This document shows, one piece after another, positions 158-45,400 of a stretch of 64,000 nucleotides of DNA (position 1 is the stretch's first letter; each line of letters opens with the position of its first letter). Both the position numbers and the translations under genes were made by a program. The notes under the pieces were generated by a model that was given only the letters and a program-made list of their open reading frames with translations, ran no database searches and was not told where the DNA came from. This DNA is from Octopus vulgaris (taxonomy: Eukaryota): contig OX597815.1 in the NCBI GenBank assembly GCA_951406725.2, forward strand, positions 174,902,001 through 174,966,000, given 5' to 3'.

Positions 158-850
158 AGAAATTAAAAAAGGAAAATACGCACACTTACATGGTTATAAT
201 ATAATTTTTAATGTATCGACCGGTTTCGCAATCGCTATTCATGATATAATGTTTAATTTATATGAATATATATATTTTTTCTTAAGAAGAAATTTGGTTG
301 ATGTTGTTTGTAATGAAATTCACGAGTGAATGATTTTACAAGTTGACAAGTAAAGGGAGGTAATTGGTTGTTATTATTGTTATTGTTGTGTGTAAGATAG
401 ATGACTGTTTAGGTTTTGGGTGGGGAATAAATATGTGTACAGAAAGGAGACAGGTTTAAAAAAAGGGGACCTTGTTTAGTAGGGGATTTATGTACAATGA
501 TGTAATATGTAAAAATATAAAAGTTGGTTATGCATGCATATTAAGACGTGTTTTGTATTTTTCAATGAAAAAAGTTTCTTTATTTAAGCGTTCTAGTTGA
601 GAGATTGTGTCTTTGCACTGGTAGAAAGGGAAGACTGTAAAATTTGGTTTGATGTTACCTGCTCATTTTTCTGTGTTCACAAAGAGGAATTTGTCTGTAT
701 TGCAGGAAACGGATTTGCTCCTTATGCAGAGTGATTATCTTCCTCAAAATTAAACTCGTTTGTCCAATGTACTGATGACTGCAACCCGAGCAGGTTATTA
801 CATAAATTAGGTTCTCAGAGGCACAGGTGAAACTAGTTTTAATTGTGAAC
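140..850 (-). mobile_element. Penelope-like element 3' fragment: GIY-YIG endonuclease plus terminal repeat with hammerhead
   Basis: Minus-strand translation FTCASENLIYVITCSGCSHQYIGQT...LHKEQIR...CEH, then FPFYQ...ETFFIEKYKTRLN; one frameshift. Confidence 0.85.
211..250 (-). ncRNA. Minimal type I hammerhead ribozyme fold with variant core (A3-U8)
   Basis: UAUAUC-AUGAAUA-GC GAUU GC-GAAA CCGG UC^GAUACA: stem I, short stem II, palindromic ACCGGU stem III, GUC cleavage triplet; directly downstream of the PLE endonuclease. Confidence 0.65.
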
Positions 851-1535: not shown

Positions 1536-4500
1536 TATCATCATCATTTAATGTCCGCTTTCCATGCTAGCATGGGTTGGATGATTTTGACTGAGGGCTG
1601 GCGAGCCAGATGGCTGCACCAGGCTCCAATCTTGATCTGGCAGAGTTTCTACAGCTTGATGCCCTTCCTAACGCCAACCATTCCGAAAGTGAAGGGGATG
1701 CTATTTACGTTCCACCAGCACTGGAGCCAGTCAGGCGTCACTGGCAACTACCTCGCTCAAATCGTTTTACATGTGCCAGTGAAGTGACATTGGTAATGAT
1801 CACGCTCGAATGGTTCTCTAGGCACCCTACTAGCACAGGCACAAGTGCCAGTAAGGCGATGTTGGTAATGATCATACTCGAATAGCCGCTCTGTCAACGA
1901 TTACACTCATATGGCGCTCTTTGCACCCCGCTTGCACGGATGCCAGTCATCAAATTTGATTTTGGTTTTGATTTCACTTGCCTCAACAGGTCTTTTCAAG
2001 CAGAGTTTAGTGACCAAGAAGGAAAAGGTACACATAAGCGGGCTGGTTACGCTCCTGGCATAGGCCACAGGTTATGGTCTCATTTGGCTTGCCGGGTCTT
2101 CTCGAGCAAAGCATATTTCCATAAGTCTCGGTCGCTAGTCATTTCCTTGGTGAGGCCTGTTCAAAGGTCGTGCTTCACCACTTCATCCCAGGTCTTCCTG
2201 GATCTACCTCTTTTACAACTTCCCTCAACCGCTAGGGTGTGGCAATTTTTCATGCAGCTATTCTCACCCATTCTTGCCACATGACCATACCAGTGCAGTC
2301 TTCTCTCTTGCACACCACATCTAATGCTTCTTAGGTCCAACTTTTCTCTCAAAGTACTTACACTCTGTCGAGTATGCACACTGACATTACACATCCATCG
2401 GAGTATACTGGCTTCATTCCTTGCGAGCTTATGCATGTCCTCAGCAGTCACGGCCCATGTTTCACTGCCGTGTAGCATGGCTGTTTGTATGCATGCGTCA
2501 TACAGTCTAACTTTTACTCTGAGCGAAAGGCCCTTTGTCACCAGCAGAGGTAAGAGCTCTCTGAAATTTGACACAGCTATTCTTATTCTAGCAGCTACAC
2601 TTTCAGCGCACCATCCTTCGCTACTGACTTGGCCATCTGGATAATGGAAGCTATCAACTACTTCTAGTTTTTCTCCCTGGAATGTGGCAGAAGTTGGTCT
2701 CTGCACATTTTCAGTGTTTATCGCTCCCGAGAATCTGCCACATACAAAAACTATCTTCCCAGTTAGCCTTGCTTTGATATTACTGCACCTCTTATGTGTC
2801 CATAGCTTACACTGGGTATATCTTATAGAGTTTCTACCTATGCCTCTACTACAGATTGAGCAGGGCTATCTACCTGAAGGGATTTGTGGTTTGCCTGCCT
2901 TCCTACTTATTAGGACTTTGGTTTTAGCTAGGTTGATTTTAAGGCCCTTCGATTCTTATCCTTGTTTCCACACTTGAAACTTCTACTCTAGTTCTGATAG
3001 TGACTCAGCAATTAGAGCAAGGTCGTCAGCATAGAGGAGCTCCCAGGGGTATCCTGTCTTGCATTCCTCCGTTATTGCCTGGAGGACTATGATAAATAGG
3101 AAGGGGCTGAGGACTGAACCTCCATGGACCCCAACCTCTACCTTGAATTCTTCAGTGTACTCATTATCTTACTGACAGCATCCCTGTACATGGCTTGCAC
3201 AGCTCTCACGAACCATTCATGTATCCCTAGTTTCCTCATTGACCACCAGATAAGGGATCGGGGGACCCCGTCAAAGGCTTTCTCCGTGTCAATGAAAGCT
3301 AGGTACAGGGGCTTATCTTTGGCTAGGTATTTCTCCTGCAGCTGTCTCACCAGAAATATGGCATCAGTGGTGCTTTTCCCTGGCACGAAACCAAACTGCA
3401 TCTCATCCAAATTGACTCTCTCCCTAATCAGTTGGGCTATGACCCTCTCCATAACCTTCATTACCTGATCCAACAGCTTGATACCTCTGTAATTATTTGT
3501 ATCTTGGGCGTCACCTTTACCTTTGTAGCAGTTGACTAGTATGCTGCTACACCAGTCATTGGGTATAACTCCTTCATGTATCACCTGGTTAACTATACGG
3601 GTGACTAGGCTATAGCCGTCACTACCAGATATTTTGAGCATCTCTGCAGTAATTCCTGATGGGCCTGGGGCTTTCACTGTCTTCATGCTTCTAATTGCCT
3701 TAACTACCAAGGAACTGTCAACTCGGATTGCTGGTCCCTCTGTTGGGTCGACATTCAGCAGACTCTCTTTATCCCATTCATTTTCTTTATTCAGCAACCT
3801 TTCATAGTGGCGTCTCCAAATCGCTCTCTTTGAATCCTCATTTAACGCAAGTGAACCATCATCCATGTGAACACATTTTTCTCCTACCACATCACGATTC
3901 TCTCTCACACACTGTCTTGCAACACGAAATACCTCAAGTCTTTGGTCCTCACGGCGCAGAACATTGGCAAATTTTTTCTTATCTGCTTCCCCTCTGGCTG
4001 AATAAACCTGCCTCCTAGCTTCCCTTCTGGCAGTCTAATACAATTCCCTGCTACTACCGTTCTTCCAAGCCTGTTTCTTTTCTCTAACAGCCCAGTCAAA
4101 AACATTGTTCCACCACCACGTTATTTTGGGTCGAGAGGGGACTTTGCACCAGATCTGGTCAGTGGCCCTCAGCAGGTTGTCCCATAGAAACCTCCAGTTG
4201 TCTTCTACACCATGTGAAGCTATATCCCCTTCTATTTCGTCAAAGGCTTCAAGTAATATGTTTCTAAATCTCTGTCCATTCGCAGGATCTTTAAGCTTCC
4301 AAGTCACCAGCCACAAAGAGAAGGTCCCTGTCATTTGTCAACGAGGTAGTCTGCAAGAGGGTGTCATAGAATCGGTCTTTCTGTCCATCGGGTAGCCCTG
4401 GCTGAGGGGCATAGGCCGAGATAATGGTTGCCTACCCATGATGAAGCACTAATCTAATCTTAAGTATTCTGTTGCATACTCTGACTACCTCAATTACCTT

Positions 4501-10200: not shown

Positions 10201-13200
10201 ATATATTTACATAAATCTATCTATCTATATATATATATTAATAGTTATCGCCAAGCTAACATGGCAGTCCAGAAAAATAGGACGAATGCTGCCATTGATT
10301 AGCTCCAAGAGGCCATCGCCTCTAGCTAGCTATGTGACACATGAACCTGTGTCCATTATAACCTTCGAACAGAGGGGGTCAGTCGCTTCCCCCTGCCGGG
10401 ACTGGCATCTGTAGACTAGTTTCAGGGTATTTGCCCCTTATCAATGTAGAGCAGCCAAACCAGGCAGGTGTTACTACTGACCGTCTGATTGAAGGATTAT
10501 TTACCTAAATTCAGTGGAATACATCCTGGTTTTCAAAAATAGAAATATTAATATTTCTAAGCCTCTCTAAAAGCTTCATACTAAATATTAAAGATATCAC
10601 TTATCCTCACCAGTGATAATGCAATAAAGAACTCTACATTTGTCCACAAGTAACCTGATGCTGAGTGAGCAAATTGATGGTAATAGAGGAGCACTGAATT
10701 GCAGAGTATGTGCAACCCTTGCAACAAGTTCTTAGACCTTACCCATCAAGTGAAGGTGACAAACGATATGAGTGTACCCCATCAGCTGGGGCTAATTTTC
10801 TGGTGGATTGGCAAAGATCCTCATGGATGAACTTATTCAATCAATTCTTATTGAAATGAATAAGTCAGCCAGAAAATGGAGAGCAAGTCTGTGTAGTTGA
10901 ATTTCCCAACATTGAAGTGCAAAAACCATTTCTGTACAGTTCTTTCAGCACCTTCTCAATACACAGTACAAATGTTTCAAATAGTAGCTTTGGAACCTTG
11001 ATTAAAAGCAAAAAGAAGCAGGTGTGAAAAATGAACTTTTTGGGTGGGTGGGGGTTTACTTGGCACCCCTTTGCCATATGTCTGAAAAGTGGTAAAATTT
11101 ATTCGAATTTCAAAAATGATAAACAAAAGTTGTTGAAGAAGAATAGAGCTACAAAAAAACCCCATAAAACAATAGGATAAAAATATTTGTGATGATTTAA
11201 ATAACATTGAAAAGAAACAAACAAATTCATCTGACAACTAATCTTCACCTTAACCATAAAAATTCGCCTTCACTCTATAAGGTGTAACTACTTAAAGGAA
11301 AGACTGGAGGCAAAAGTAACAGCTTAATTCCAAAAAGTGTAGAAAAAAAAGCAAAATCTAAAACTCCACTCACTGCTAATAATTTATTATTTGAAACAAT
11401 AAAAGCAGAGTTTACTTGGTAATATTGTTACCATTATCATTAGTGTTTTCCAAGGTGGTATGATTTAAGGAGATCTGTATCACAGCATCTTTGTGCATCT
11501 TGATCCCATGTCATCTCATCTTTGAAAGTCCATGCTGATTATTTTATATTTGGTCTTCAGTGATCTAATCCAATCTTATATCACCTATCTAATAATAGAT
11601 CTCTAGGTCTGCAGCTCCATTCCTTTATATTTTGATACCACAATTGACAATAATAATAGCTGACAGTTTTTTTCCCTTTGTTTCTCATGATTACAGAGTC
11701 AATAGGAAATTTATTATTCTTCTCAAACATTGCATAGTTTGTTTTTACTATCAATGTAAAAAAAACAACTTTCAATCAACATTGTTATCATCATCGTTTA
11801 ACATCCGTTTTCCATGCTGGACGGTTTGACAGAGGTCTGGAGAGCCAGCAGTTCCACCAGGCTCCAATCTGATCTGGCAAGGTTTCTACAGTTGGATGAC
11901 ATCGATCACATTCAGATAGTGCTTTTTACATGCCACCAGCATGGGAGCCAGTCAGAGGGGTACTGGCATCAGCCACATTTGGCTGGTCCAAATGATAATT
12001 TGGCCCTGTCTTCTCATGGCATCAAATACGGGATAAAAACATTTGCTATATCAATCTTCCTTTTTGTACATCAAACTAAGTGAAATAGGTGCCGAGAGAA
12101 ACATTGCAGCAAATGATAGCTGAAACACTCATTAAACAAGACTTTTGTTGGCATTCCAATCCTTTCCAAATGTGCTAACTTTTTTGGACTACACTTTTAT
12201 ATTCATTGCATATAGCTTGTCAGCATGTCAAAAGACTTTTTTCAGCTATGGGCAACTAAACTGACATATGTTACCCAGTGCTTTGGTAGTAAATTCTGAA
12301 TATAGTTGTTATTTATGATACCAAACAACCTAAAGGATGAAAGGTAAATATAAATTCCAGCAAGGAATACCATCAATAGTTCAATCCATTTCCATTACCT
12401 CAGGTAAACCAAAAGATATGACTGCCTGCAGCAAGATGGTTTTAATGCTTTGGCTACTTACCCAACAGGTTTCTTGGCTTCATGAAACTCTTTAAGAATT
12501 CGCTCAACATCTGCAATTACCTTCATGTCAGGCCCATCAATTGCAAAAGAAGATCTGAAATGAAATTATTTATCAAACAACATTTTAATCTTTTATTTTT
12601 TTATCCTGGAATGAATTGGCCTACTCTCAAATAAATCTGTGGAACCAGATCTTTTGCCCTGAAGCTCAACATTTTCAGATCTGAGCAAACCACTTCTGAT
12701 GATTTCCTTGGTTGACTACCACCATGGACATCCACTACAAAAAAGTGTTTCCCCTGTAAACACACAGACATCACTAATGCTTTTGATGTACAGTGTAATA
12801 GCCTATGTTTAATTCTGTTTCCATTGTTCTCATGTAAGAGAACTTTCCGTTTCGCGACCGTTGCCAGCACCGCCCCGTTTCGTGTCCGTTGCCAGCCTCG
12901 CCTGGCCCTCGTGCCGGTGGCACATAAAAAGCACCATCCGTTCGTGGCCGTTTGCCAGCTCTGTCTGGCACCAGTGCAGGTGGCACGTAAAAAGCACCCA
13001 CTACACTCACGGAGTGGTTGGCGTTAGGAAGGGCATCCAGCCGTAGAAACACTGCCAGATTTGACTGGGCCTGATGAAGCCTTCTGGCTTCACAGACCCC
13101 AGTAGAATCGTCCAACCCATGCTAGCATGGAAAACGGACGCTAAACGATGATGATGATGATGATGATGATTGTGAAATGATAAAATTAATTCTTCCCTGG

Positions 13201-38361: not shown

Positions 38362-41300
38362 GTATAGATTGTTTGAAGTAGTGTACAAAATTTTATGCAT
38401 GAAGAAAAAGGAGGTAATCGGGATTTGGCTAAAAGCTATTTATTGATTTGTTTTCATGGGTTTTGAAAGAAGGTATTTTGGGAGTTGTTATTTGAAATGT
38501 TCTTTGTCATTTGGAATCTATATGTGTGTGTGTGTATTCCAGGGTAGTGCACAAGACTTACAAGGTGGGCATGCTCAAAACTTGCACTGAAATCCAAAGA
38601 CAGAGAGAACTCCACCAGCACATCCCGTTTTATCTGGAATCTATAAATTGTTACACCCACCACCCACCATTTTCAACCAGTGCACTCAGCAATGGCCTTT
38701 GTCTCTGTGAGAAACCGTACATGCTGCAGCAGCTAGCTATATCTCCTAACAATAAAAATGAAGTGACATTCTCCAGATCTAATCAAGACTAATTTTAAAT
38801 CATTAACAACTGATATTAATCCCATAAATTTTACCCTCACTATTTTCCTTTACATGTGAACCAAACTGTCTTCTTACAACTACTAACGACACTAAATGCA
38901 AGACATTAATGATTGACACCTTACATAAGATTTTTTTCTGATACTTCCATAATATTTACTTCAACAATCTTCTGTAAACTTCCTTCAAGCTTCCATGTAT
39001 ATTATAAGAGCTAATTTGACACATAAAACAGAAACAGACAAGTGCTAGATAAATCTTTTAAGTCTCATTAGTGGTTTGATTTCTTATCCTAATGCATTTG
39101 GTGCTAATAATGTTTAAAATCCTTTATGGTTTCTAGTTCCAGTAGTTGCTCAGGCATCAGAGAAGATACTCAAGTAAACAGGCAGGCTAAATACTGTGAG
39201 ATATGGTGGTGGCAACAACTTGATACCAGTAATACATAATTAAAGGAAATTAAGTAGAAATTGAAGACTTACTTGAAGGTGTTTATGTTATAGAGTTGGT
39301 GCTGGTAAATATAATCTATGACTGGTTCTTGCAAGAGGAATTTCACACTTTCACCACGCCGCAAAGCTCGGCTGCAATAGAATTTCATAATCACAATCCT
39401 GATCCTTTTTATTAGTGCCCCCACCACCACCACCACCACCACCACCACCAGCACAAGACAGAAAGAAAGAAATGAATAAAGGAAAAGAAAAGACAAAGGG
39501 AAAGGGAAAGACATGCAAAAGAACAATATAGAGGAAAGATGGGAGGATGAGAGAGAGGAGAGGGGGAGATAGGTGAAATAGAGAGAGTGAGAGAGGGGTA
39601 GACTGGAGGGGAGAGAGAGGTAAGAGTAAGATGGATAAGGGATAGAGAGGGAAGAGGAGAGAGACAGATTGACAGATAGATACAAATAGTTGTATCATAG
39701 TATGATGGCTGCAATATAATAAGAGATATCCATCTCCTATCAGTTTTTAGTACTCCTCTTTATGGTATCTGATGCTGAAGAGAAATAACCACTCTGAAAT
39801 ACATGCATCCATTGACCTGGTTCTCCACAAGAAAATACAGTGAATGGATTTCCTACGGGGTTTGTATATGTGAGAAGCATATTTGAACTGGTAACAAGTT
39901 TATATTTACATGCATCATTGCTTAGCATTTCTATTTTATATAACAAACAATATAGCCATCTAGAGGGAAGAGAGAGAGAGAGAAACAGATAGAAGGGGGG
40001 AAAGAAACTGAAAGATAAACTCACCGAATCTTTGTAGAACTGATGTCATTTCGTATCCATTCTGGGACAATAAATATATTTTCCTAGCAAAAAAACAAAA
40101 TCCTGATAACTTGAAGTAGAAAGAACAAATAAATGAATAATGACTGGACACACACACACACACACACAATCCAGCATCCAACCAATGTCAGTATGAAAAT
40201 CACATATAAGTGATTTTGTTTGTCCATTTTTATGCCTGTTTTTCCCTGTTGCCATGGGTTGAGTGTTTTAAGATACATGGCTCAATATGGGTTTCCATAA
40301 CCCAAATCTCATTTACAAGGGATAACTTACATCATGTCTTTGATCAAGCTATTTGTTGACAGGAGAGATGACAACAGCAACATAACTTGAAGCTAAGATA
40401 AACATACACACACACACAAATAGCCTTTAAAGTTCATGCCATTTGTGTTCTGTTTTTCTATGTATGCCATACCTGCAATCAACCCCAAAATTGCATTTAT
40501 GGCTTAAATTGGATTTGACACTTACCTATCTCCAGTCTCCTCCCAACACCTGATGCCTTCATCGTTGTTTACCTCACTGTGAACTCTATGTTATTGTACC
40601 TACCATTTCTGGCTTCCCACGTGTTGATGTGCCAAGACTATATTGAATACTGATAACTAAAATATATAACACCTGAGTAGACACTGATAGTCTATATATT
40701 GTTAATGGAAGATTTGGTTATTATGCTGCAGCTGGCCGTCTATCATAGTAGGGTGAAATCCCAGGATCTGGCCATTCTGACAGCCATAGCAGATAATTCT
40801 TGTCTGTCAACAATATAATTTGGAGTGTTCTCATGCACCACTAGTCCTTATTTAGTTCCTCCCAGGGTAAATGACACAGTATTCTGTGTTCTAACACAAC
40901 CTCCACTTTAATTGTGAGGTCAAGATTACTTTTTTAAGTATTAACACTGCACCCAATGCTATTAATTATATAAACATATAAATCGTTGCTTTTTACGATC
41001 CACTGGCAAGTAAAAAGCATCCACTACACTCTCGGAATGGTTGGCGTTAAGAAGGGCATCAAGCTGTAGAAACCTTACCAGATCAGATTGGAGCCTGGTG
41101 CTCCCTCCTCGCTTGCCAGTCCCTGGTCAAACCATCCAACCTATGCCAGCATGGAAAGCAGATGTTAAACGATGATGATTATGTTAAACTGTTGTATGTC
41201 CAAATTTGGCCAAATGCGTATTTTTCAATATTTATTTTTGCTTACAATAACCAGTTCTTTTGATCAAACTATCATATCTCCAGCTGCTTGAGATGCCAAG

Positions 41301-42478: not shown

Positions 42479-45400
42479 CCTCATCATCTTTCTCATAATC
42501 ATTGCCATTATATCATCTAACATCTATGCTCCATGCTGGCATACACTGGGAATTGATCCAAGGACAGCATAGTGTCCACTGTCAGCTTTGATCTGGTTTC
42601 TATGTTTGGATGGCTTTCTTAGTGCCAACCAGTTCACAGCATAGACTGGGTGCTTTTTCTTTGCTACTGGTGCTAGTGAGGTTGTCATCCAAACACACAT
42701 AGGTGAAACCAGTTATTTGAAGTAAATTAAAAAGATTTAATATACTTAAATTAAATATTACACCTGTTTTTGCCTCTTTAATTTGTCTTCAAGGACTACA
42801 ATAATTCTCTAAAGTTTGCATATTTCACCAATTTGTGCGTGTGTGTGTGTGTGCGTGCATGCGTGTGTAGCAAGTAGCCATTTTTAAATAAGACGCCAAT
42901 TTGTGGTAGCTGGCAATATGACGTAATGTCGTATTGCTGAAGAAATATTATTGTCGTTTTTCCATTGGTTAATATAACTGTTCATATATAAATTCTAAGA
43001 ATTAGTAAAGAATATTTGTATGTAATTTTGATTCTTTAAAGTCAAGTTGAGCAGTTATAAAAACCCTGGATTTTGGGAAAAACTTTAGTGTTTGTTGGAT
43101 GTAACTAAACTCCATGACACTCACTCCTTTGAGACATTGGTGATTTTTCATGCCATGTCCAAGGAAAATCCAACAAGTCTTATTTGAATTGTTGAGATTC
43201 AATATTAGTTAGATTAAAGAATTAGATAGTAAAATATATAGTCATAATTCTCTACGACAAAATTTACCTATCTTTCACCTGTATATAATATAAAATGCTA
43301 TATGTATATAATAAAAATTAATTAAGAAAATGTTTTCTCTTTCTTCACGCTCTTCAAATATATATAAAATGTATTTCTGTAATTATTAAAATGTATTTTC
43401 TTATAGCGGTTAAATGAACACAAAAATCACATTCAACATACATTCTCGCTAATGTTCATTAGCGTTCCAGAAAGTATATTTCTCTATGGCGTTTATATAA
43501 CTGTAGTTTGGACTGCGTATAATGATAACACTTAAGTTATAAGTGACAGTTCTATCATTAAACATCCTTACTTTAAAAGCCAAATAATTTTATCTATTTC
43601 CAAATAGGAAACATAATAAGTAGCGTTGCATTAACTGTAAACAAAACTAACTAGAGAATATACACTATAATAAATAACATAAGAGAAGCATGGTTGCTAA
43701 AATCGCTATACGTGCTTGTTTATGTTTATTTATTTTTTATTTTAGACATTTATATTTTTGATATTTTTTTACAATGGGAGAATTTGAATTTCAGAATGAA
43801 GATCTATGAAACATTATCAGTTTATAGTGTTATCTTTATATATATCAGAAGAAAGAAGGTGCCATGAGTGGTTGTACCAGAACAACATAACATCACCGCT
43901 GCTGCCACCGCCGTCGCCACCACCACCACCACTAACAACACCACTACCAGCAGCAACAACAACAACACTGCCACCACCAACACCATCACCATTAAAAAAC
44001 AAATTCAAGCAAAACATTTACCTGGTATTTGTTTAACATATCATTTTCATAAATGAACTTTCTTGGGTCTGAGTTCTCTCGAGTGATACAAACAAGACCA
44101 TATTTGGAAAGTATTTTCTCCAGCTAAGAAAAGAGAAAAAAAAGAATATGAGAAACTGCAATAAATGAATGTATATTAAAAAAATCAAGTCAATTGCTCC
44201 TACACTCTTTTGGCAATGTGCCAAGAAAACGGGGAGGACTTTTTTCAGCAGACAAATCACACAGGATGAAACATGTGTCCATCACTATGATCCTGAGACT
44301 AAAGTCCAGTTGAAGCAATGGAAGCATGATAACTCACTACCTTCAAAGAAGTTTCGTGTCCAGCCCTCAGCAAGCAGGGCGATACTCAGTCTTTTGGGAC
44401 CAATGCGGAGTAGTGATGATGGATTTTCTGGCAAAAGGCACCCAATTAAGAGAGCATATGCTTCTCTGCTGCAGAAATTGCAGGATGCCATCAAAGCAGA
44501 GAGGCATGGCATGCTGACCAAAGGAGTCTGCCTCCTTGAAGACAATGCACATGTTGTCCAAATGAAAGCACACTCCTGTAGCTATGAAATCTTTCCTCAT
44601 TCCCCTTACTCTCCTGATTCGCACCATCTGACTTCCACCTCTTTCCAACCATAAAGTCTTTTTTAAAGGGGAAATACTTTTTGGATAATGAACTTATTTC
44701 CAAGGCAAAGTCTTGGCTCCAGATGCAACCTGCCAACTTCTACAGACGAAGTCTTCAGTTGCATAAAGTGATGGGAGAAGAATGTCACCATTAGTGGTGG
44801 CCATGTAGAGAAGGACTAATAATTATGTCAAGTTTTGTTTATCCCAGTCCTTGGGAAGTAGGCCAAGGGAAATCTTTAATGAACACCCCTCATATATATA
44901 TATACCTCTCCAACACCACCATCCTTACAGGCACTCATCATCATCCTTATCATATCACCAACTCCTTAACCTGCACATCTAGCAACCTCATTTACTGCAT
45001 CTCCTGCCCTTCTCTGTGCATTGGCCAAATGGGATGCCACTTGGCTGACCAGTTCGTGGAGCACCTCCAAGGCATCAGATTTGGTAATGGCATCCTGGTC
45101 TCACACCATTACTGCTCTACTGGTCATTCACTACAGCACCTGTCTGTGTTCAGATTGTCTTTGCACAGGGGCCATCCAGATTCCTGCCTTCACCGTGAAC
45201 AAGAATTAATCTTCTCTCTTTGCGCCACATGGGCTCAACTCTCCTCTGTTCATCTGATACCTACTTCCTCTTCTTCACTCCTACCCACTTTCTCTCTTTG
45301 TTGATACCCCCTCCGTCCACACCCCACATCCCCATTCCAACACCACACCACCACGATACCACACACACTAGCACCGACCACTTTCCAGCACCCACACTGC

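Follow-up and report, generated by a model that had tools for sequence, protein, structure and literature searches.

The window, that is, the whole 64-kb stretch of DNA analysed here, contains the 3' part of a Penelope-like element (PLE) on the minus strand. The first piece of its GIY-YIG endonuclease lies at 673–861, is 78% identical over 63 amino acids to the protein P0001 and has GIY-YIG-like motifs, a CxxC and two conserved histidines; the second piece, which follows a frameshift and reaches the ORF end, lies at 531–671, has one in-frame stop and is 62% identical over 47 amino acids to the P0001 C-terminus. The Pfam GIY-YIG match (E=0.005) is under the curated cut-off, and the profile match starts at 873, near which the copy is 5'-truncated. 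An earlier reading of this DNA (the sequence-only reading) had called the domain well preserved, a description that the frameshift near 672 and the in-frame stop do not bear out. The 3' untranslated end, part of the pseudo-LTR, extends over 160–530 on the same strand; it is multi-copy by the contig cover of 165–480, its limit at 160 is estimated from the start of a (TA)n tract, and it ends in a U-rich tract that, by eye, is similar in several relatives. The (TA)n tract (127–157) borders the element's 3' side, and a (TA)n/(TG)n tract (862–1065) borders the truncated 5' side.

Neptune/Nematis EN+ PLEs are defined by a C-terminal GIY-YIG domain with a CCHH motif and by a CX2-5CxxC linker, and Neptune elements show a microsatellite insertion bias (PMC8557442). 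P0001 is a protein with a reverse transcriptase (RT), a CX4CxxC linker and a GIY-YIG domain; aligned to it, the window element shows the CCHH motif as CxxC plus two histidines, and is truncated before the linker. The element thus appears to be a Neptune-type PLE, a clade name assigned by motif only, in a tree without named Neptune or Nematis references. The best-scoring named proteins come from Argonauta, bivalves and bacterial bins, and two Argonauta proteins group in the window's clade in a quick tree, so the element family is probably one of octopods. Several animal-type PLE contigs (L092–L097, P0028 and P0030) lie inside bacterial genome bins and are most likely host contamination.

No second copy of the element family was found in the 64-kb window. 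What is left of another PLE GIY-YIG domain, a distant one, lies at 44903–45127 (plus strand), with no hammerhead match after it, and broken ORFs of a non-LTR reverse transcriptase, which by eye we take to be RTE-like, lie at 2161–4337 on the minus strand.

A minimal hammerhead motif with an A3-U8 core

Inspection of the minus strand revealed a minimal type I hammerhead motif at 248–212, on the sense strand of the element and in its 3' end, with A3-U8 as the core pair. The sequence-only reading had located the motif right after the GIY-YIG domain; the actual spacing is 288 nt past the ORF end, with 71–312 nt in relatives. In order along the minus strand, the 5' strand of stem I (248–243, pairing with 217–212; family variants at 247 and 248) leads into core positions 3–9 (242–236), which read A3 (242), U4, G5, A6, A7, U8 (237) and A9 (236). 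Stem II follows at 235–228, its two G-C pairs joining 235–234 with 229–228 around a 4-nt loop (233–230); no listed variant affects 235, 234, 229 or 228, and loop positions 230, 231 and 233 vary. The segment 227–219 comprises G12 to A15.1 (GAAA, 227–224), the palindromic stem III (224–219, with CCGG at 223–220) and U16.1 (219), and 218–212 comprises C17 (218) and the 3' strand of stem I (217–212). By analogy with known hammerheads, the cut is predicted between 218 and 217.

U4, G5, A6, A9, G12, A13, A14, A15.1-U16.1 and H17 are thus all present, in order, around a three-way junction, as are the palindromic stem III and G10.1-C11.1, and an extra unpaired base between 9 and 10.1 is absent from the window motif and from relatives such as L013, L015 and L021. 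Five of six pairs are available in stem I, two in stem II and six, intermolecularly, in stem III. The literal CUGANGA, with C3 and G8, is absent, A3 and U8 being found in the window copy and in the family, and a Watson-Crick pair, A-U, can form between positions 3 and 8. Every segment of the A3-U8 hammerhead that the sequence-only reading had proposed is therefore found on the minus strand at 248–212. This copy has an A-C mismatch in stem I (247/213) and does not fold as a hammerhead on its own.

The relaxed search that the sequence-only reading had proposed, run with a descriptor that put no constraint on positions 3 and 8, gave two matches in 64 kb (both strands searched), of which only the 248–212 motif has a palindromic 4-nt stem III. 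The combination of a Watson-Crick 3-8 match with such a stem III occurred in 0 of 30 Markov shuffles, and the only NUGANNA heptamer on the minus strand of 100–530 is the motif's own. Rfam gave no hammerhead match in the first 3 kb of the window; this blank is uninformative, because Rfam also missed 15 related loci carrying such motifs.

An alternative register with C243 as C3 was rejected on inspection, as it needs insertions and loses A9. A splice-donor-like hexamer at 189–184 (minus strand), 29 nt after the cut site, was likewise discarded, being absent in 26 of 26 relatives. With the family majority letter at 230, 238–227 (minus strand) is a perfect tandem of a 6-mer, and U8 might stem from slippage; the argument is weak, since the fold dictates most of the repeat.

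A3-U8 as the state of the element family

To tabulate positions 3 and 8 across copies, as the sequence-only reading had suggested, we used 2,457 contigs aligned on 165–480 at 80% likeness and with a 3% threshold, taken from four runs of four studies, one run each, under four organism labels (253, 756, 602 and 846 contigs per run). Parts of 165–845 were found in 20 of 24 listed runs, under four organism labels. Contigs lose rare variants, their depth is no copy number, and no single contig spans 165–480; depth is highest at 187–230, and the summed depth was 6,251–141,491 at 233 and 3,140–56,598 at 247. Among the best 40 of 42 variant rows in the four runs, there was no other letter at 242 or 237, and none within 219–229 or 234–246. 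As far as contigs allow, the family consensus is therefore not C3-G8 and the window copy is no outlier, which upholds the earlier proposal of a natural A3-U8 family rather than one decayed copy. That A3-U8 is a natural family trait we regard as very probable.

Variation elsewhere in and near the motif is compatible with the fold. A base that pairs in stem I occupies 213 in 91–99% of depth, and the mismatch of the window copy at this position is therefore private decay. A G-U wobble variant is found at 247 in 10–21% of depth, and the outermost stem I pair is altered at 248 in 34–81%. Loop II varies at 230 (63–87%), 231 (7–10%) and 233 (1–4%), the 231 variant giving a GAAA loop if linked to the 230 variant, and the CpG at 218/217 varies by up to 6%. 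At the flanking sites 334/337, other letters reach 17–78%, and these intermediate shares imply that the family has two subfamilies or more. A subfamily divergent at 248–267 is represented, among the loose ends listed (283 further ones exist), by consensus sequences of the runs X8 and X5 that cover 236–265; both have A3 and U8, and in X5 A6 is also changed to G. None of the private changes of the window copy falls in the core, which is not significant (p about 0.08). The window copy is itself unlikely to be active.

Hammerheads in related elements and covariation of the 3-8 pair

Searching with an alignment of 40 related proteins yielded 79 loci from metagenomes and 6 from genome bins, and 49 of these 85 matches reach the ORF end. 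Within 450 nt downstream of the ORF end, a descriptor that did not require 3-8 pairing found a hammerhead in 27 of the 49 loci, at 71–312 nt (24 C3-G8, 3 U3-A8 and no A3-U8). The set includes near-duplicate loci (L033/L040, L044/L077 and L042/L046). Shuffled controls gave one descriptor match in 900; scored in this way, the window motif at 288 nt reaches 10. Among the 22 loci missed, four have <80 nt downstream and four have C3-G8 motifs further out; by eye, C-G was seen in L027 and L059, U-A in L028, L037 and L043, U-G in L025 and C-U in L047, and no motif was seen in the remaining seven. The window motif is thus a homologue of the C3-G8 or U3-A8 hammerheads of its relatives, with the same place, strand and build.

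The 3-8 pair was kept in all 24 rows (CG 21, UA 2, AU 1) of an alignment of the window with 23 relatives, from which L022, L025, L047 and three near duplicates had been left out. CCGG is the commonest stem III in this alignment, in which the counts for stems I and III are partly circular, as the descriptor demanded both. A C3-U8 mismatch core (L047:1531) and a U3-G8 wobble core (L025:1929) also follow related PLE ORFs; L047 may have decayed or may preserve an intermediate, and both cores count against a working A3-U8 hammerhead. PLE minimal hammerheads occur in both pseudo-LTRs of a full element (PMC4209133), and in the relative L013 two such hammerheads lie at 58 and 3757; the window copy itself is 5'-truncated.

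U3-A8 cores (L022, L028, L037, L043, L054 and L095) fall on several separate branches of the quick tree, which suggests that U3-A8 arose repeatedly in PLE relatives. In this tree, which omits L046 and in which L039 and L040 are probably represented by the wrong ORF, the window lies beside P0001 in an 11-row clade known as proteins only. Support is weak for the group (88) that includes this clade; every member of the group with DNA has C3-G8, which suggests that A3-U8 was probably derived from C3-G8.

Covariance models were built from 26 relatives, with the window excluded. In model R1, which lacks stem II, the motif came third (E=0.22), and model R2, a three-way-junction model that includes stem II and was made after the outcome of R1 was known, placed it first in 64 kb with a rough E of about 0.008, the next matches having E=0.022 and 0.035. 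The site with E=0.022 (39768–39812, plus strand) is a C3-G8 core look-alike; its stems are weak, and no PLE remnant lies close to it. The site with E=0.035 (10407–10451, minus strand) has a U3-A8 core, a 4-bp stem II, a palindromic stem III and two inner stem I mismatches; no PLE protein remnant was detected near it, and it is possibly a decayed solo tail.

Predicted folding and a proposed mode of action

In hammerhead catalysis, the general acid is held in place by the C3-G8 pair. Folded alone, the window copy formed no hammerhead (z = -0.26) and was engaged in a competing hairpin. When three majority letters of the family were introduced, the predicted best two-strand fold was a hammerhead dimer, with a gap of 0.0 kcal/mol as against 8.7 kcal/mol for the window copy and 1.4–18.0 kcal/mol for ten relatives; these letters come from separate positions, and their joint occurrence is assumed. 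Of the four Watson-Crick 3-8 pairs placed in the A3-U8 family context, only A-U left position 3 mostly unpaired (0.90, versus 0.28, 0.31 and 0.01). In-silico 3-8 swaps favoured A-U in the A3-U8 family by about 1 kcal/mol, which is within model error. Non-native 3-8 pairs fold better in many of the relatives, and the folding argument for A-U is weak, because the native pair of many relatives is not the best-folding one.

We propose that in tandem or full-length transcripts two motifs would pair with each other through their palindromic stems III, each supplying a strand to the other's stem I, and that A3-U8 would place nucleotide 8 as C3-G8 would. The RNA would then be cut after C17 (218), slowly and perhaps aided by the element's own protein, as in an anole PLE, and A3-U8 would be kept by selection through rounds of retrotransposition. 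A3-U8 would also keep the core out of competing pairs and so might make up for weaker catalysis, a step of this proposal that is weak. That the window holds the 3' hammerhead of a 5'-truncated, decayed Neptune-type PLE copy, from a family with A3-U8 that works as proposed, is the reading we favour, with reasonable rather than high confidence. The motif of the A3-U8 family is, to the same degree, predicted to be a working ribozyme. We advance only tentatively, and with some doubt, the further proposal that this is the first natural multi-copy A3-U8 hammerhead family, working as a minimal dimer that has no loop-loop contacts, in which the pair was chosen against core mispairing.

Alternative explanations

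One alternative is a motif that is shared by the whole family and does not cut: both changes would have been fixed in a master copy whose hammerhead was unneeded for transposition, the fold being kept for protein binding, for dimerisation or for nothing. PLE hammerhead cleavage is dispensable in vitro (PMC11167929), Naiad PLEs spread without canonical hammerheads (PMC8557442), mutational scanning gave an A3-U8-type swap a low score (PMC9901934), L047 has a C3-U8 core, and one old burst may be common to all four organisms. What speaks against such a relic is where the changes fell, the two of them hitting the partners of one pair with the other core bases intact. The sequence-only reading had argued that random decay would rarely produce this pairing; by our arithmetic, pairing itself is restored in 3 of 9 cases once both positions change, so that this part of the argument carries little. 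Its strength lies elsewhere: of the 11 fixed positions in the core, both changes struck exactly the two that pair with each other, which has a chance of 1 in 55, or about 1 in 165 with pairing. Moreover, the subfamilies that differ at their flanks (334/337) have no listed variant at 3 or 8, and the variation in stem I and loop II is solely compatible with the fold. We consider a non-cutting relic unlikely, though deserving of serious attention.

It is far less probable that the active family is C3-G8 (or U3-A8), with the A3-U8 copies as one subfamily or as outliers and the canonical copies too divergent to align. Depth does fall about 2- to 11-fold from 198–208 to 253–263, the 283 loose ends and two variant rows lie beyond those listed, no contig joins 165 to 480, and the 10 nearest proteins are known as protein only. 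However, 559 contigs with <90% likeness did align, the clipping points among those listed are at 247 and 268 rather than within 236–242, the divergent subfamily's own letters are A3 and U8, and 5' truncation itself predicts a depth gradient that is high at the 3' side. A chance look-alike in an AT-rich 3' end is scarcely credible. It would fit the blank Rfam result, the lack of a stable fold in the window copy, the weak R1 score and the two unrelated window sites that model R2 scored at E 0.02–0.04, but it would leave the agreement in place, strand and build with the hammerheads of related elements to coincidence, against shuffled controls of 1/900 and 0/30 and with relatives that Rfam misses too; positional homology thus largely refutes it.

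Implications

What is described here is a family-wide A3-U8 form of a hammerhead already known from PLEs, the minimal one, and neither a new ribozyme class nor a new kind of element. The natural 3-8 pairs known previously were C-G and U-A. In the weakest hammerheads, those free of tertiary contacts, published mutagenesis of this pair is context-dependent, and a family-wide A-U is nature's own test of whether every Watson-Crick combination suffices there. A compensatory swap by double transversion, held across subfamilies, is also indirect evidence for selection on the catalytic geometry of PLE hammerheads, and it bears on their role, one of them being dispensable in vitro. Standard CUGANGA searches miss the A3-U8 version. 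In descriptors used to search for ribozymes, positions 3 and 8 are better left as a free pair. If the more tentative proposal of a first natural, active A3-U8 family is true, descriptors fixed on C3-G8 or U3-A8 miss whole families of PLE hammerheads, some of them in elements scored as hammerhead-free.

Comparison with published hammerheads

No case of a natural A3-U8 hammerhead was found in the open full-text literature, with figures beyond the reach of the search, and nothing on A3-U8 in the available portions of PMC3884650, PMC2920678, PMC10085705, PMC6257768, PMC2837043, PMC13282606, PMC11014351 and bioRxiv 10.64898/2026.07.22.740005. A search of supplements for A3-U8 also gave 0 matches and is uninformative, as a canonical control motif gave 0 as well. 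Viral contigs contained 12 A3-U8 pattern matches, whose stems I all looked unconvincing on inspection, and neither a match to the family motif nor a PLE relative.

The closest published counterparts are the minimal hammerheads of metazoan PLE pseudo-LTRs (Cervera and De la Pena 2014, PMC4209133), which, like that of the window, are of type I, lie downstream of an ORF for RT and GIY-YIG, have G10.1-C11.1, a palindromic stem III and a dimer architecture, and occur mostly in truncated copies. PLE minimal hammerheads are thought to cut as dimers; in a Schistosoma example the monomer was inactive and the dimer weakly active (PMC4209133), and dimer cutting of minimal PLE hammerheads is also described in PMC6765202. 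The window motif differs from those of PMC4209133 in its 3-8 pair, A3 being found in none of the 56 representatives of their Fig. S3 (53 C3 and 3 U3). It further differs in having no extra base between 9 and 10.1, a 2-bp stem II and a 4-nt palindrome, traits that are common to several of its relatives; the extra base is also missing in two rows of Fig. S3 and hence is not universal.

Natural covariation of the 3-8 pair at the level of a family has a precedent in U3-A8, which is present in the Cercyon PLE hammerheads of Schistosoma mansoni (about 1,300 matches; PMC4209133) and in the natural hammerheads of Perreault et al. 2011 (PMC3088659), and which, like A3-U8, is missed by the CUGANGA descriptor. 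Covarying 3-8 pairs have been shown to be active in vitro, according to PMC3088659. U3-A8 is two transitions away from C3-G8 and keeps the pyrimidine-purine order, whereas A3-U8 is two transversions away from either C3-G8 or U3-A8 and places a purine at position 3. Work by Przybilski and Hammann in 2007 is said to have found all four pairs active, with a preference for pyrimidine-purine in one ribozyme.

In an all-pairs scan of one type III hammerhead, the G-C swap alone gave rescue at 3-8, with low activity in every other double mutant of the region (PMC9901934), an outcome that is context-dependent, because the low class also covers the natural U3-A8; no per-mutant values were found in the two supplements of this paper that were searched. 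In the PLE Poseidon of Anolis carolinensis (PAc, PMC11167929), whose hammerhead is, like that of the window, a PLE hammerhead, the 3-8 pair has been tested, with a G3-C8 swap giving partial rescue, and cleavage needs protein; mutating the hammerhead left in vitro insertion unaffected, and RNA ends at the cut site were not observed. PAc belongs to another PLE clade and has a natural C3-G8, unlike the A3-U8 of the window. The Neptune/Nematis EN+ PLEs (PMC8557442) resemble the window element itself in the C-terminal GIY-YIG with CCHH and in the microsatellite flanks, and their CX2-5CxxC linker recurs in P0001, the nearest full protein, whereas the window copy breaks off short of it.
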